39,610 nt of DNA. It comes from Negativicutes bacterium. GTDB lineage: Bacteria > Bacillota > Negativicutes > JAGOZY01. The stretch covers positions 1 through 39,610 of the forward strand of contig JAGOHU010000002.1 in assembly GCA_017995975.1 (NCBI GenBank), given 5' to 3'. The notes beneath the pieces are model-generated. The model saw only the letters and a list, made by a program, of their open reading frames with translations. It did no database searches and was not told the origin of the DNA. The translations under genes and the position numbers were made by a program. Within the stretch, counting starts at the first letter, position 1. Every line of letters begins with the position of its first letter. This document shows, one piece after another, positions 7,877 through 22,460 of the stretch.

Positions 7877-9133
7877 ATGAGTAACCATGAAATTTCGGCT
7901 TTAGACGTTGCCCACGAACAACTAGATAAAATTGCTTCTTTCTTGAAATTGGATCCTGCGATTCACGCAATTCTAAGAGAGCCACAACGCTGCTTAGAAG
8001 TAGCAATTCCTGTAACTATGGATGATGGAAGTATTCAAGTATTTACCGGATATCGTTCTATGCATTGCGATGCAATTGGACCTGGAAAAGGCGGAATTCG
8101 TTTTCACCAAAACGTAACGATGGATGAAGTAAAAGCATTGTCCATTTGGATGACTTTCAAATGCGGAGTTCTCAATCTTCCTTATGGTGGTGGAAAAGGC
8201 GGAGTTATTGTTGACCCAAGTAAACTTTCTCAAGCAGAGCTTGAGCGTTTGGCTCGTGGATATATCCGTGCAATCGCTCCTGTTATCGGCGAAAAAGTTG
8301 ACGTTCCAGCTCCGGACGTAAATACAAATCCGACAATCATGGGATGGATGCTCGATGAGTACATCAAAATTAAAGGAAATGATATCGGCGTTCTTACTGG
8401 TAAACCATTAATTTTAGGTGGTTCTGCTGGACGTACTGCAGCTACTGGACGAGGAACTGCAATTACGGTTCGGGAAGCACTGAAAAAATTAGGTATGGAT
8501 ATTAAAGGCGCTAAAGTAGTTGTTCAAGGATTTGGTAACGTAGGATCCTTCGCAGCACGCTTCATTGAAGAGCTTGGTGCTAAAATCATCGCTGTAAGTG
8601 ATGTAAATGGTGGAATCTTCAATGCTGATGGAATCAGTGTTGCAGCTCTTGAAAAAGAAATGGCTGAAAAGAAAACTATCGTTGGTCTAGCTGGAGTAAA
8701 ACAAATCAGCAACAGCGAGCTTCTTGAGCTTGAGTGTGATGTGTTGGTTCCAGCAGCTCTGGAAAACCAAATCACCAAAGAAAATGCAGAAAATATCAAA
8801 GCGAAAGTGATTGCAGAAGCTGCAAATGGTCCTACAACACCAGAAGCTGACGAAATTCTCCGCAAACGTAAAATTGTAGTAATGCCTGACATTCTCACCA
8901 ATGCAGGTGGAGTGACTGTGTCTTACTTCGAGTGGGTACAAAACCGTTATGGTCTCTACTGGACTGAAAAAGAAGTGAACCAGCGTCTGGAAGATGCAAT
9001 GGTTCATTCCTTTGAAAACGTATGGGCTATGTATCAAAAAAATATCAACGATGTAACTCCTCGTATGGCAGCTTACATGGTATCGATTGATCGTCTCGCT
9101 CAAGCAATTAAAGCTCGCGGATGGGTAAAATAA
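7877..9133 (+). CDS. gdh: Glutamate dehydrogenase (Glu/Leu/Phe/Val dehydrogenase family)
   Basis: Catalytic motifs GKGGIRFH and PYGGGKGG are present, with the dinucleotide fold VVVQGFGNVGS. The ATG at 7877 is preferred over the GTG at 7868 on RBS spacing. Confidence 0.9.
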   Translation: MSNHEISALDVAHEQLDKIASFLKLDPAIHAILREPQRCLEVAIPVTMDDGSIQVFTGYRSMHCDAIGPGKGGIRFHQNVTMDEVKALSIWMTFKCGVLNLPYGGGKGGVIVDPSKLSQAELERLARGYIRAIAPVIGEKVDVPAPDVNTNPTIMGWMLDEYIKIKGNDIGVLTGKPLILGGSAGRTAATGRGTAITVREALKKLGMDIKGAKVVVQGFGNVGSFAARFIEELGAKIIAVSDVNGGIFNADGISVAALEKEMAEKKTIVGLAGVKQISNSELLELECDVLVPAALENQITKENAENIKAKVIAEAANGPTTPEADEILRKRKIVVMPDILTNAGGVTVSYFEWVQNRYGLYWTEKEVNQRLEDAMVHSFENVWAMYQKNINDVTPRMAAYMVSIDRLAQAIKARGWVK

Positions 9134-9153
9134 GATAATCTATAGTAGTATTT

Positions 9154-9186
9154 GAAGGAAGAGTGCGAAGGCACTCTTCCTTTTTA
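9154..9186 (+). terminator. Intrinsic terminator of gdh
   Basis: Stem GGAAGAGTGC / GCACTCTTCC with a GAAG loop, followed by TTTTT. Confidence 0.85.
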
Positions 9187-9274
9187 CGTTAAACGGTCAT
9201 TTTGAATAATGGTATTGTATGACTTCCGGTGATTTGTTAAAATTTGAAAGGGAAATAAATAAGGGGGTATTATT

Positions 9275-9919
9275 TTGAAAAAAAAGACTCTATTAATGGT
9301 TGTATTGTGCTCGTTGCTCTTGGTCGCTGGTTGTAGTAGTGATAAAAAAGAAAATAAAGAGCCAGATAAGAAAGTAGAAACTACTCAATCCAAGGCAGAA
9401 GAAAAAACGGCTCAGTCGGGAATTGAACAAAGTAAGGTGTTTTCCGATAGTAAAGTAGCAGAAGCTTTGAAAGCCGAGATTAAAGAAAAAATTGGCTCAG
9501 CTAAGGTTTTTGAAGAGATTCAAATTACGGAAAATTTGGTCACCATTTCTTATCAAGACCCAACTAAAGCAACCAATGTGGATGCTTATAAAAAGCTCAA
9601 TGGTTCTTGGAGTGGACCTCATCCAGTAAAAATAACTTTAAGTGGTGGAAAAACCGATGACAAAGAAGCATTGGCTCGAGCCATTACAAATAGTTCTTGG
9701 AACATTGATGAATTTGATTTTAAAATGATTCCTAAACTCATGGAAGATGCCCAAAAGAAGGCAAAAGAAAAAGGAATTGAAGACCCAAAAGTAGATAAAA
9801 ATATTATTATTGGTCTTTACTTATCAGATAAACGGGTGATCCAAATTGGTGTAAAGGGAACTCGTGGAAATGCGACATACCGAGCAAATATGGATGGAAG
9901 TTTTGAGAGCCTCAATTAA
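9275..9919 (+). CDS. Lipoprotein, function unknown
   Basis: TTG start with a GGGGG RBS. Signal peptide with lipobox LLVAG-C, followed by a Lys/Glu-rich linker. Confidence 0.75.
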   Translation: MKKKTLLMVVLCSLLLVAGCSSDKKENKEPDKKVETTQSKAEEKTAQSGIEQSKVFSDSKVAEALKAEIKEKIGSAKVFEEIQITENLVTISYQDPTKATNVDAYKKLNGSWSGPHPVKITLSGGKTDDKEALARAITNSSWNIDEFDFKMIPKLMEDAQKKAKEKGIEDPKVDKNIIIGLYLSDKRVIQIGVKGTRGNATYRANMDGSFESLN

Positions 9920-9946
9920 TCTCATTCACTAAAAGCATAGATAATC

Positions 9947-9973
9947 AAAAAGAGTACTGATTTTCAGTACTCT
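9947..9973 (+). repeat. Left copy of a 27-bp direct repeat (terminator hairpin without its T-tail)
   Basis: AAAAAGAGTACTGATTTTCAGTACTCT is identical to 10491-10517. Here the hairpin is followed by CAGGCTG instead of a T-run. Confidence 0.9.
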
Positions 9974-10490
9974 CAGGCTGTATACGTAAGGGCTGACGAC
10001 TTTTTATAACGTCGAATTAGTGAGACTTGGCTTATTAATTTTGTGCATATCTGTACCTATTTTAGGTTGCAGAAAACAATTCGTTTTTCTTGTAGTACTT
10101 CCCTTCGGCTCAGTGTTAAATCACTACCTGCCAATTTATAAATGGACGGTAGTGATCCAACAAGCACCGTTATGAATAAACTCTGCCTTCGTAATAACTC
10201 GGCAATCGTTAACACTACGGTAGTGCTCTTTTTACTGCTCGCCATGCTTGCAGAGCATCGCAACTCGCCGCGAGCGGGAATACTACATGCTTCTAGGGCT
10301 ACGATTTGGTCGGGGAAATAATAAATTTTCTGCACCACCCACTGTTCAAAAAAAGTTTATAACGAGTAGTTTGAAGCTGTTTCGTATGGTTAATAAAAGA
10401 GACTTTGATTCCTACAATTTTTATATTACAAGGAAAAGGCAGGCCAAAAACAGATCATTTTTTTATTAACTTGCCTTTGGTCTACAGTCA
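9974..10490. mobile_element. ORF-less MITE-like insertion (517 bp) with imperfect terminal inverted repeats
   Basis: The element is bounded by the 27-bp direct repeats. Its ends, 9976-9991 GGCTGTATACGTAAGG and the reverse complement of 10474-10489 GACTGTAGACCAAAGG, match at 12/16 positions. It contains no credible ORF. Confidence 0.5.
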
Positions 10491-10522
10491 AAAAAGAGTA
10501 CTGATTTTCAGTACTCTTTTTT
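10491..10522 (+). terminator. Right copy of the 27-bp direct repeat, forming an intact intrinsic terminator
   Basis: Stem AGAGTACTGA / TCAGTACTCT with a TTT loop, followed by TTTTTT. An A-run upstream makes it potentially bidirectional. Confidence 0.8.
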
Positions 10523-10530
10523 GATATAAT
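10522..10530 (+). promoter_or_regulatory. Candidate extended -10 promoter element for the FAD oxidoreductase gene
   Basis: TGATATAAT (TGnTATAAT) lies 39 nt upstream of the ATG at 10569, which has an AAGGAGG RBS. Confidence 0.35.
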
Positions 10531-10568
10531 ATGAATAGATAAAATAGGCTAAGGACTAAGGAGGAAAA

Positions 10569-11633
10569 ATGATCTACGATGTTGCAGTTATCGGCCTTGG
10601 GCCAGCAGGCTCGACCTTGTCTAGACTTTTATCACCTAAACTAAAGGTGATTGGAATTGATAAAAAAAGTAACCAAGAGGAAAGCGGTTTTACTAAGTGT
10701 TGTGGCGGATTGCTTTCTGATGATGCTCAGCGCTCGATGGCTCGGCTGGGTCTGGTTTTACCAAAAGATGTTTTGGTGAATCCTCAAATCTTTTCGGTTC
10801 GAACAATTGATGTAAATCAAGAGGAGGAGAGATACTATCAAAGATTTTATTTAAATATGGATCGTCATGCTTTTGATCTATGGCTGATGTCTTTAATCCC
10901 CAATTCGGTAGAACTTCGAGAAAATACAAGTTGCACTGATGTTCGAAGATTGGCTGATGGAAATTATGAAGTGACGATTCTTCGAGATGGAAAGTATGAA
11001 AAAATTGTTGCTAAAATCGTAGTTGGAGCCGATGGAGCAGGCTCCATTGTTCGGCGAAAGATTGGTAGAGAGACTGGTGAAGTCTATGTAGCAATTCAGG
11101 AATGGTTCCATGCGCCGAATCAGAAGCCCTTCTATATCTCTTTATTTGATGAAAAGATTAGCGACTCCTATGGTTGGGCTCTTTCAAAGGATGAGTATTT
11201 TATTGCCGGGATTGCAGTTCCGATTGAAAACGCAAATCAGCGATTTGAAGTTTTTAAAGATCACCTTCGTGATCGAGGGTTTATATTGGACAATCGAGTG
11301 AAAAGAGAAGGCAGTCCTGTTCGCCTAACTCGATCTTTTGGGGATCAATATGTGGGTCAGGATGGAGTTTATTTTATTGGCGAAGCAGGTGGATTTATTA
11401 GTTCCAGCTCGTTAGAAGGTATGAGCTATGGAATGGATAGCGCTTCTTTACTTGGGACTGTGCTTAATGAGTCCTTGGATAATGTAACCTCTAGATATAG
11501 TAACGCCACTATTGGATTGCGAATGAAGTTGGCTACTCGAATCATGAAACGATTTTTCATTTACCGACCGACGATGCGAAAATGGGTCATGAAAAGTGGA
11601 CTTCAAAGTATAAAAGTGGATAGTGTGAAATGA
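10569..11633 (+). CDS. FAD-dependent oxidoreductase (geranylgeranyl-reductase-like flavoprotein family)
   Basis: N-terminal Rossmann motif DVAVIGLGPAGS, the CGG motif KCCGGLL, and a GADG motif VVGADGAGS. Confidence 0.7.
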   Translation: MIYDVAVIGLGPAGSTLSRLLSPKLKVIGIDKKSNQEESGFTKCCGGLLSDDAQRSMARLGLVLPKDVLVNPQIFSVRTIDVNQEEERYYQRFYLNMDRHAFDLWLMSLIPNSVELRENTSCTDVRRLADGNYEVTILRDGKYEKIVAKIVVGADGAGSIVRRKIGRETGEVYVAIQEWFHAPNQKPFYISLFDEKISDSYGWALSKDEYFIAGIAVPIENANQRFEVFKDHLRDRGFILDNRVKREGSPVRLTRSFGDQYVGQDGVYFIGEAGGFISSSSLEGMSYGMDSASLLGTVLNESLDNVTSRYSNATIGLRMKLATRIMKRFFIYRPTMRKWVMKSGLQSIKVDSVK

Positions 11634-22119: not shown

Positions 22120-22193
22120 TGAATATGAAGACCAAGACTTGTCAGGCGATTTTAGTTAATGGTATAGTAGGAGAGTAAAAAAGTTAATATTTG

Positions 22194-22460
22194 CGATAAA
22201 GGTGCCTTAGGGCATAATAGGGAAGTTCGGTGTAAAGCCGACGCGGTCCCGCCACTGTGTAGGAGCTTGCATTTGCAAGGCTGATTCAAAAACACCACTG
22301 ATTTTTTTCGGGAAGGTTTGAATTGGATAATCCAAAGCCAGGAGACCTGCCTTTATGAGTGTCACCGATTGTACCTACGAGCGATAGGGAGGGGATGAGG
22401 GCGATCCTCGTCATGCCGTATTTTTCAAGGAGCAAGAGGAATGCTCTTTTTTTTATTCCA
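22194..22460 (+). promoter_or_regulatory. Cobalamin (B12) riboswitch with terminator expression platform
   Basis: The P1 helix pairs ATAAAGG (22195-22201) with CCTTTAT (22350-22356). The conserved core is AATAGGGAAGTTCGGTGTAAAGCCGACGCGGTCCCGCCACTGTG, including the B12 box GCCACTG. The downstream hairpin AAGGAGCA/TGCTCTTT is followed by a T-run (22428-22460). Confidence 0.85.

Follow-up and report, generated by a model that had tools for sequence, protein, structure and literature searches.

An ORF-less modular repeat family associated with intrinsic-terminator hairpins in a Negativicutes bacterium

Described elements closest to this locus

Class C group II introns are known for insertion directly behind terminator hairpins. 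Among insertion sequences, IS1272/TnSha1 of staphylococci always enter hairpins, confirmed as terminators by RNA-seq, with no sequence specificity, at the hairpin base or in the stem and in both orientations (PMC4923244), and the targets of IS1272 are inverted repeats of 21–85 bp (PMC5678879). IS1272/TnSha1 carry a transposase and short terminal inverted repeats (16 bp), make no target duplication and remove part or all of the hairpin. The IS1202 subgroup, which includes IS1202 of Streptococcus pneumoniae and ISSeq2 of S. equi, is the only group documented with 27–29-bp repeats (IS1202 27 bp, ISSeq2 28 bp, ISShal2 29 bp; 10.1101/2022.12.17.520857; PMC10132070). Its members are 1.3–2 kb long and have a 400–500-aa DDE transposase, imperfect terminal inverted repeats of about 18–25 bp with TGT or T(a/g)T tips, and Gram-positive hosts; copies without repeats are reported within the IS1202 family. 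Bacterial MITEs and modular repeats, such as BOX, RUP and SPRITE of pneumococcus, Correia and ERIC, are non-autonomous, intergenic, multi-copy and strongly self-pairing sequences of about 100–300 bp with inverted-repeat ends, and BOX elements are modular, their internal units being present in varying numbers (PMC3049150).

The stretch analysed here, the window, comprises 39,610 nucleotides of contig JAGOHU010000002.1 from a Negativicutes bacterium and contains an ORF-less 517-bp element between two exact 27-bp direct repeats. Like the IS1202 subgroup, the element and its relatives have long direct duplications (27 bp here and about 30 bp at a second site), imperfect terminal inverted repeats and a host that looks Gram-positive; unlike that subgroup, they lack an ORF, have TCAG/CAG tips and mostly sit at terminator hairpins, a preference not reported for the IS1202 family in 10.1101/2022.12.17.520857 and PMC10132070, and two copies (G and H) are without a long duplication. 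With IS1272/TnSha1, also a Firmicute element, they share short terminal inverted repeats and a position at the hairpins of intrinsic terminators, whatever the hairpin sequence, shortly behind genes and in both orientations; they differ from IS1272/TnSha1 in having no transposase of their own and in leaving the hairpins intact, at times duplicated whole. By analogy, IS1272, of the IS1182 family, is as close a precedent as IS1202. The small repeats of the MITE kind resemble the element in being non-autonomous, intergenic, multi-copy, self-pairing and bounded by inverted repeats, and the modular build of BOX recalls the optional modules found here. Those repeats are shorter than the 410–840 bp seen in this family, whose interior is better conserved than its ends, and terminator-hairpin association with whole-hairpin duplication sets the family apart from them as they are described; a sequence match with a described family did not emerge. 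The left end of the element presumably bears a weak resemblance to the primer BOXA1R.

Judged from its sequence, the 517-bp stretch belongs to a hitherto uncatalogued, apparently terminator-seeking modular repeat family of the MITE kind, of which it represents a single copy. The repeats form a family with conserved ends that is associated with hairpins, and the site described here carries a direct duplication. We place at about 0.78 the probability that this is a multi-copy family of ORF-less modular elements that is moved in trans and targets terminator hairpins, with the whole 27-bp hairpin duplicated at this locus.

Insertion site, boundaries and neighbouring genes

The 27-mer AAAAAGAGTACTGATTTTCAGTACTCT occurs as two exact copies, at 9947–9973 and 10491–10517 (repeat search; 0 expected from 100 dinucleotide shuffles), and contains a terminator stem-loop with a 10-bp stem (9951–9960 paired with 9964–9973) and a 3-nt loop, so that the pair and its hairpin are as an earlier, sequence-only reading of this DNA had described them. 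That reading had also noted that the T-tail is lost on the left, and the right copy does run into a T-run while the left copy runs into CAGGCTG. The left copy (9947–9973) consists of an A-run and the terminator hairpin (-12.8 kcal/mol), ends exactly at the junction with the element and has no T-tail on the plus strand. Its 5' A-run is retained, which gives hairpin plus T5 on the minus strand, and in that sense the left copy is the sole terminator-like site found between 9200 and 10700 by a terminator scan. The right copy together with its T-run (10491–10522) is an intact bidirectional terminator with 17-nt perfect arms (-16.4 kcal/mol), in which six T's lie at 10517–10522 when the last T of the repeat is counted. 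The loop TTTT lies on the plus strand in both 27-mers, and they are therefore direct repeats and no extension of the inverted ends of the element.

The element itself, copy A, occupies 9974–10490 on the plus strand, with boundaries accurate to about 1–2 nt. Its right boundary lies at 10489/10490, exactly where the flank of a second copy diverges, and its left boundary was set by comparison with the left junctions of five further copies; a conserved TCAG tip may include the T at 9973. The left terminal inverted repeat, (T)CAGGCTGTATACGTAAGGG (9974–9992, plus strand), is conserved at eight left ends, and the right one, TTGCCTTTGGTCTACAGTCA (10471–10490, plus strand), provides the 3' arm for a subterminal hairpin that forms a perfect 19-bp stem in copy G. 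Within copy A the ends are imperfect, as had been noted: 9976–9991 matches the reverse complement of 10474–10489 at 12/16 positions (with up to 4 mismatches allowed). They are clearer across copies, where a 19-nt consensus, TCAGRYTGTAGACNWAAGG, is common to both termini, at eight left and five right ends, and 18 of 19 bases agree between the left end of copy E and the right end of copy B. Conservation of the ends among copies, on which the sequence-only reading had made its proposal depend, is thus found. Tips defined by the junctions read (T)CAGG... on the left and ...CAGTC(A) on the right, and TGT is set inward from them, by 5 nt on the left and by 4 nt on the right. The CAGnY outside TGT is conserved among copies and so belongs to the element.

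The longest ORF in the 517 bp encodes 93 aa (10057–10338, minus strand) and was rejected as a gene, in keeping with the noted lack of a credible ORF. Its database relatives are only ORFs in other copies of the element, none of which has a name or a Pfam domain; its start varies among copies, and its frame is broken by an optional module whose length is either 99 or 98 nt, depending on the copy. The ORF served as a handle for locating other copies. It is annotated by gene callers in public assemblies, where the element seeds a spurious "hypothetical protein".

Upstream lies a gene for a 214-aa lipoprotein-like protein (9275–9919, plus strand; signal ...LLVAGCSS), whose terminator is the target of the element. 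A Pfam search with this protein gave no match, and the exact protein occurs on many sewage and gut metagenome contigs. Downstream, a candidate extended -10 box, TGATATAAT (10522–10530, plus strand), read from the sequence, directly follows the terminator T-run, is untouched by the duplication and precedes a gene for a 354-aa FAD-binding oxidoreductase-like protein (10569–11633, plus strand; Pfam FAD_binding_3). A scan of species-representative genomes guided by the FAD protein returned one irrelevant archaeal match and nothing else. Since the T-tail is missing at the left hairpin, read-through from the lipoprotein gene into the element is plausible.

Copies of the family and their folded interior

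Relatives of the element were found in about a dozen insertion contexts on metagenome contigs of the same organism, a number counted over contigs and not per genome. The sequence-only reading had called the element non-autonomous and MITE-like and had tied that view to the existence of other copies or of an empty site; the copies are there, as a repeated, ORF-less family bounded by inverted repeats, and the listed contigs that span the lipoprotein–FAD site and encode the identical proteins all carry the element, with no empty site among them. Copies range in size from 0.41 to 0.84 kb and have optional modules. Metagenome contigs break or change copy within the element, and assemblies of this organism from metagenomes are fragmented and scrambled by it. 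Neighbouring genes are distinct at both flanks (lipoprotein, LUD-domain, 133-aa, encapsulin, Usp, MFS and permease on the left; FAD, QueC-like, ArgG, ABC-ATPase and SBP on the right), and the element is co-directional with the neighbouring gene in six cases and opposed in four, a mixed orientation that fits a DNA transposon with symmetric ends.

Searches for further members were negative in several collections. No second copy was detected within the window by BLAST with 7-nt words or by nhmmer with a family profile; BLASTN of three element versions against phage and plasmid collections gave no match; viral contigs probed with the end sequences of the element yielded nothing; and an exact 20-mer from the apparently most conserved stretch had no match in genome, metagenome or viral collections. 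A search with a 20-mer from the invariant core recovered one true partial copy (L022), two other hits (L021 and L023) being chance matches in GC-rich coding DNA. Neither the window nor the surroundings of any copy contained a transposase-bearing parent with TCAGRYTGTAGAC ends.

The choice of a terminator hairpin as target, proposed from the single site, recurs across the family: in 7/10 left flanks a hairpin with an energy of -9 kcal/mol or lower ends at the junction, compared with about 2–6% of random 32-mers, and 3/5 right flanks are a strong hairpin within 1–2 nt of the junction (2–6% of background 32-mers), the hairpins being unrelated in sequence within each set. The flanking hairpins differ at every copy, contrary to the possibility that each 27-mer is a terminator in its own right, the two enclosing a conserved gene that occurs elsewhere without the repeat. 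The 27-mer behaves as the target duplication that it had been taken for, since a second whole-hairpin duplication of 30 nt is found at copy B and a diverged third at the degenerate copy L019, whose flank pair is 27/40 identical and is the best non-self match among 12,266 positions. The two flanks of copy B come from two different chimeric contigs and could represent two single-sided insertions beside one hairpin. Copy G, seen in six independent contigs, splits one hairpin at its centre, with both halves retained, and has no duplication, and the flanks of copy H lack both a hairpin and a long repeat; one fixed stagger can therefore not account for all copies.

The interior of the element is built around a folded core (10089–10162 and 10262–10289) that is 91–93% identical among eight lineages, compared with 67–77% at the ends and in the sequence that follows the core. 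MITEs usually show the opposite pattern, and the difference hints that the interior does more than bind a transposase. A small conserved hairpin (10044–10071; helix 1 of the consensus fold, alignment columns 17–26/36–44) precedes the core, which is closed by a long-range helix between GTAGTACTTCCCTTCGGC (10091–10109) and GCCGCGAGCGGGAATACTAC (10267–10287), for which the consensus fold has 18 pairs, 13 being invariant across 10 sequences; the 3' strand emerged from both the repeat search and the consensus fold. The same two approaches identify the main core hairpin (10114–10162), of about 15 bp with an internal loop, in which copies A and G differ at both positions of two pairs (C-G to T-A and A-T to G-C). 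Optional modules always lie between helices. The one in copy A is 99 nt long (10163–10261) and is itself a long hairpin followed by TTTTT; it is missing in copies B, E/Q, G, L019 and L027 and measures 98 nt in copy H.

Six pairs in the alignment change on both sides, and the number of paired cells and the covariation score exceed those of all 500 shuffles, though the sequences are few and related and the shuffles overstate the support. Folding is more stable than in shuffled sequence for either strand (z = -3.7 and -3.0), the consensus-fold energies are similar (-42.9 vs -46.2 kcal/mol), and signals of strand are opposed: in the long-range helix and helix 5, G.U pairs speak for the plus strand, and in the main hairpin, A.C mismatches speak for the minus strand. 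On the minus strand near the right end, a weak promoter candidate, the -35/-10-like pair TTGRYC-16-TATAAA, recurs in copies A, Q and G with the final T absent. A plus-strand promoter candidate, TTAATA-17-TACAAT, was rejected as it is not conserved in copies Q and G. Rfam gave no match at E <= 1 for 9000–11500, which also ruled out an RNase P RNA on the minus strand suggested by a 10-nt identity; at gathering score, the sole match in the window was a cobalamin riboswitch elsewhere, and seven loci with longer copies gave noise only.

Alternative origins, proposed mechanism and significance

The source of the mobilizing activity can be sought in two insertion sequence families. The sequence-only reading favoured descent from an IS1202-type element, and the view that the repeat is an internally deleted derivative of the IS1202 subgroup, whose DDE transposase would make the 27-bp duplication, stands as a tentative minority possibility. 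The length of the duplication agrees with it (27 bp at copy A and about 29–30 bp at copy B, in the range documented for this subgroup alone), as do a host that resembles a low-GC Gram-positive, like those of IS1202 and ISSeq2, and the reported copies of that family without repeats. The ends agree less well: described IS1202-family ends start with TGT, or T(a/g)T on the left, whereas TGT lies inside both junctions here, and no repeat appears when the flanks are measured from the TGT/ACA positions. Copy G simply interrupts a hairpin centre without a 27-bp repeat, hairpin targets are absent from both cited IS1202 papers, and an IS1202-type transposase was not found in the window. Mobilization by an IS1182-family (IS1272-like) transposase that reads terminator-like stem-loops as structures seems doubtful. 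It would fit the varied hairpins, the mixed orientations and the hairpin-centre position of copy G, and the IS1182 family is tabulated with repeats of 0–60 bp. Yet IS1272 makes no duplication and deletes part of the hairpin, whereas hairpins are intact at seven left flanks and perfectly duplicated at copy A, and no IS1182-family transposase was found in the window or beside copies. The alternative of a small att-flanked element integrated by a site-specific recombinase, also raised by the sequence-only reading, is very improbable. The direct repeats here, 27–30 bp long and with dyad symmetry, have the usual size of recombinase core sites such as dif, but the flanking hairpins are unrelated in sequence between sites and so provide no common att core, the element has no hairpin copy beyond the duplication, and no recombinase gene lies nearby. 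An ORF-less class C group II intron or other retroelement is less credible still: in most copies the left end adjoins a terminator stem at its 3' base, as in those introns, which likewise lie directly beside terminator stem-loops, but Rfam returned no group II intron or other ribozyme, the element has neither a GUGYG 5' end nor a domain V, its ends are inverted repeats, its orientation relative to transcription is mixed, and retrohoming leaves no target duplication.

The conserved interior invites a different explanation, that the core is a structured non-coding RNA gene, possibly borne by the element, with the flanking hairpins serving as its terminators and insulators, and that the family persists because this RNA is useful to the element or its host. 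We regard this as unlikely. The excess of core identity over the surrounding sequence speaks for it, together with the long-range helix, the two double compensatory changes in the main hairpin, the position of modules between helices, the covariation and folding scores, the left hairpin that is a proper terminator on the minus strand, and the recurrent promoter-like pair near the right end. Against it stand the conflicting strand evidence with similar energies, a pattern that fits a DNA palindrome, the candidate -10 without a conserved final T, the unconserved plus-strand promoter, the small number of related sequences behind the covariation and the empty Rfam searches; RNA alone does not account for an exact 27-nt duplication or for hairpins that are different at each site. 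A further idea, that the near-invariant core takes an active part in transposition, either as RNA or folded single-stranded DNA that guides an enzyme, host-encoded or distant, to hairpins, much as bridge or seek RNAs guide IS110/IS1111, or as a module that exploits termination complexes, is a long shot. If the core does act in transposition, the family would represent a new class of structure-guided non-autonomous mobile element and could account for transposases whose target duplications match a hairpin in length.

Under the preferred reading of a trans-mobilized, hairpin-targeting family, the element would be incapable of moving itself, and a transposase encoded elsewhere would act on it in trans. 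This transposase appears to read intrinsic-terminator hairpins by shape and not by sequence. At the present locus, the element would have entered the bidirectional terminator between the lipoprotein and FAD-oxidoreductase genes, the target strands probably being cut on opposite sides of the hairpin in a staggered fashion, and repair of the gaps would have produced the whole 27-bp hairpin on both sides. The upstream gene would thereby be left with a hairpin without its T-tail, the downstream gene would have an intact terminator in front of it and keep its own promoter, and the hairpin on either side may insulate the element.

If this is true, the family would be a clean natural case of a mobile element that reads DNA shape, in the form of terminator hairpins, over sequence. 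Whole-hairpin duplications of 27–30 bp also suggest a physical reason for the long duplications of the IS1202 type, namely cuts at both bases of an extruded hairpin. Insertions of this kind would be nearly harmless because a terminator is restored on each side, and for that reason the element could spread in the intergenic DNA of its host and rewire termination and read-through of neighbouring genes.

Hairpin flanks and element ends

The 27-mer AAAAAGAGTACTGATTTTCAGTACTCT flanking the 517-bp element of the window (copy A, 9974-10490) occurs exactly twice, at 9947-9973 and 10491-10517, where shuffled sequence expects none, and it folds as a 10-bp stem with a 3-nt loop. The sequence-only reading took it for a terminator hairpin that keeps its T-tail on the right copy alone, and this is borne out: a T-run follows the right 27-mer and CAGGCTG the left. 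The left 27-mer retains its 5' A-run and, on the minus strand, is the sole terminator-like site reported by a terminator scan of 9200-10700. Both loops read TTTT on the plus strand, so the 27-mers are direct repeats and no part of an inverted repeat. A candidate extended -10 box for the downstream FAD-oxidoreductase gene, TGATATAAT (10522-10530), begins inside the right hairpin's T-run; promoter and terminator overlap here, and the duplication kept both. At the single base between right end and right repeat (window 10490; contig L002 position 5221), one population variant carries T for A (CAGTC-T-AAAAAG), which is nearer to the CAGTCTGA form of other copies.

The imperfect inverted ends proposed for the element are present at 12/16 positions and belong to a consensus, TCAGRYTGTAGACNWAAGG, found at both ends across copies; one mismatch in 19 positions separates copy E's left end from copy B's right end. 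At the right end of copy G (contig L030, about 930-990) a perfect 19-bp hairpin, TAGACCAAAGGCAGATTAC / GTAATCTGCCTTTGGTCTA, has the terminal repeat as its 3' arm, so that two end-like sequences stand inverted to each other with about 7 nt between them; the window copy (10436-10478) preserves just 7-8 bp of the hairpin. The left end at 9983-9999 reads ...TACGTAAGGGCTGACG and loosely resembles the pneumococcal boxA primer BOXA1R, which we take to be CTACGGCAAGGCGACGCTGACG; TACG, AAGG and CTGACG blocks are common to both with two indels, possibly by chance.

Hairpins are frequent at the junctions of other copies. Seven of ten left flanks fold as a hairpin of -9 to -19 kcal/mol with the last paired base at the junction, and three of five right flanks begin with such a hairpin within 1-2 nt of it, against a background in which 5.7% of all window 32-mers fold to -8 kcal/mol or better and 2.1% to -10 kcal/mol or better. 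These hairpins are unrelated in sequence, most have terminator-like A-runs or T-runs, and the element is mixed in orientation relative to neighbouring genes. Flank architecture is heterogeneous. The whole hairpin is duplicated around copy A (27 nt, on contiguous contigs) and copy B, where the 30-nt AACCCTTGATAGATTTTCTATCAAGGGTTT stands left of the element in contig L024 and right of it in L005; it is possible that the copy B pair reflects two one-sided insertions, L024 and L005 being different chimeric contigs. A diverged hairpin pair surrounds a degenerate copy on contig L019, matching at 27/40 positions; of 12,266 positions compared, none gives a better non-self match. Copy G, with an MFS gene on one side and an ABC ATPase gene on the other, shows one pair of flanks throughout six independent contigs; these, AAAAAAACTGAGCTTTT and TGAAAAGCTCAGTTTTTTT, are the two halves of one bidirectional terminator, with the element at the hairpin centre and nothing duplicated. 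Copy H (contig L028, 1413-1900) lies inside an amino-acid ABC-transporter operon, between binding-protein and permease genes, with neither a hairpin nor a long repeat in its flanks.

A dispersed and modular family

Copies were sought first on contigs encoding exactly both proteins that flank copy A. Four carry the same locus and four others stop inside the element; among the latter, contig L005 passes into a diverged copy in which 10163-10261 is missing and whose right end exits at 10489 into a different hairpin. Contigs with the downstream gene show three further left-hand contexts, each joined to it through a longer version of the element. Further copies were retrieved with a spurious 93-aa ORF as database handle, and a scan of metagenomes with an invariant 20-mer added one partial copy (L022), the only match of exact probes in JGI metagenomes. 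The additional copies that the sequence-only reading called for thus exist, in about a dozen distinct flank contexts on metagenome contigs. A profile search of the 205 kb of collected loci found no more, and the window holds only one. Exact probes had no match in species-representative genomes or viral contigs, phage and plasmid collections held nothing similar, and no Rfam family matched the element region even at E <= 1. By these searches the family is absent from Rfam as well as the phage and plasmid collections.

Copies measure 410, 448, 517, 615 and 840 bp, and they differ by whole modules: optional blocks of 99 nt (10163-10261), 102 nt (after 10048) and about 221 nt (near 10078). The optional modules (10163-10261 and the extra blocks of copies C/E/F on contig L015, 3842-4500) share the frame AGCACCGT ... 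CTACGGTAGTRCTC followed by T-runs and contain a motif resembling the right end of the element, AAGTCTACGGTAG; they may represent hairpin units present in repeats, or nested insertions of older date. On the reverse strand of L019 (1640-2500), a degenerate partial copy between two related hairpins is directly followed by a second copy without the left terminal module, whose end lies in a different terminator upstream of argG; the composite may be a nested or tandem insertion. Many metagenome contigs change from one copy to another within the element, so the pairing of left and right flanks is safe only where several independent contigs agree. Short-read metagenome contigs L005-L008, L010-L013, L015-L018, L024 and L031 stop inside the element or link one copy's left flank with another copy's right flank, which would reflect either chimerism at element repeats or real strain differences by recombination between copies.

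The view that the 517 bp hold no credible gene stands. The longest ORF (93 aa, minus strand, 10057-10338) has no Pfam domain, its start is unconserved among copies, and the optional module within it measures either 99 or 98 nt, depending on the copy. Public metagenome gene calls place a 60-110-aa 'hypothetical protein' here; since every one of the 13 database relatives of the ORF (P0001-P0013) is itself an ORF called within another copy of this non-coding DNA, the protein cluster is an annotation artefact.

A conserved core without a chosen strand

The core is nearly invariant, and conservation is greater there than at the ends. Across eight lineages, mean pairwise identity is 91% at 10089-10162 and 93% at 10262-10289, against 77% in a small hairpin upstream of the core and 67% in the DNA after it. 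The consensus fold joins 10091-10109 with 10267-10287 in a long-range helix and forms a 15-bp hairpin at 10114-10162, with the optional 99-nt module between the two. Two double compensatory changes in the core hairpin separate copy A from copy G. Both partners change in six pairs, and none of the 500 shuffles or the slid controls attains the observed covariation score, a support overstated by the small number and relatedness of the sequences. In the long-range helix and helix 5 the plus strand is favoured by conserved G.U pairs and by alternation of G.U with G-C, in the main hairpin some ten A.C cells point to the minus strand, and consensus-fold energies are similar (plus -42.9, minus -46.2 kcal/mol); therefore no strand is chosen. 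A DNA palindrome drifting by transitions would give such mixed signals. Three copies carry a promoter-like minus-strand pair, TTGRYC and TATAAA with a 16-nt spacing, which lacks the usual final T; a plus-strand promoter prediction was rejected as unconserved. Given the strand conflict and weak promoter candidates, no RNA product is claimed.

Proposed mode of insertion and local effect

The evidence best supports a non-autonomous DNA transposon that is mobilised in trans, and the proposal of a MITE that picked a terminator as its target gains support from the dispersed family, its conserved ends and the left-flank hairpins, and extends to the family as a whole. Because the hairpin differs at every site, a sequence-specific att site is excluded, as are paralogous RNA genes with their own terminators, and the att-flanked alternative previously offered is unlikely. 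The long duplications that the sequence-only reading gave for the IS1202 group are correct: that subgroup makes target duplications of 27-29 bp (10.1101/2022.12.17.520857; PMC10132070), and the length at copy A fits. IS1202 family ends start TGT or T(a/g)T (10.1101/2022.12.17.520857; PMC10132070), whereas, compared by published description, the element's TGT is displaced inward from the left junction by 5 nt and from the right by 4 nt, the outer bases being conserved element sequence. Copies G and H lack a duplication, and no transposase occurs in the window or adjoining any copy. These three points count against assigning the element to that family; IS1202 parentage is possible but fails one defining feature. 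Window genes concern cobalamin synthesis, transporters and a helicase. A full-length cobalamin riboswitch (22183-22368, plus strand; Rfam RF00174, 93.8 bits) lies downstream of CbiM/N and CbiK genes and just upstream of corrin-methylase and CbiD genes, and is an ordinary B12-regulated operon leader.

Other mobile DNA offers partial likenesses. IS1272/TnSha1 (IS1182 family) enters only hairpins, which RNA-seq identifies as terminators, inserting at the stem in both orientations with no sequence preference, deleting part of the hairpin and leaving no duplication (PMC4923244; PMC5678879). The present family shares the terminator hairpins of unrelated sequence and the mixed orientation, but has a duplication at copy A. 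Its modular build recalls pneumococcal BOX elements (PMC3049150). Class C group II introns likewise sit next to terminators, but none of their RNA signatures is present in the element.

Staggered cleavage followed by gap repair produces exact direct repeats of this kind, loop included. If the transposon's target strands were attacked one at each base of the stem, as would be natural on an extruded hairpin, the duplication would equal the hairpin; attack in the loop would yield an insertion of the copy G type. In the ancestral arrangement the lipoprotein stop codon would have been followed by 27 nt, then the hairpin, its T-run and the FAD gene's extended -10 box TGATATAAT. Once the element had inserted, the FAD gene would retain both terminator and promoter, and the lipoprotein gene a hairpin without its T-tail, which makes the predicted transcriptional read-through into the element plausible. 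In copy H, 10 nt separate the left end from the ribosome-binding site of the permease gene, and the element could there either provide transcription for the genes downstream or obstruct it.
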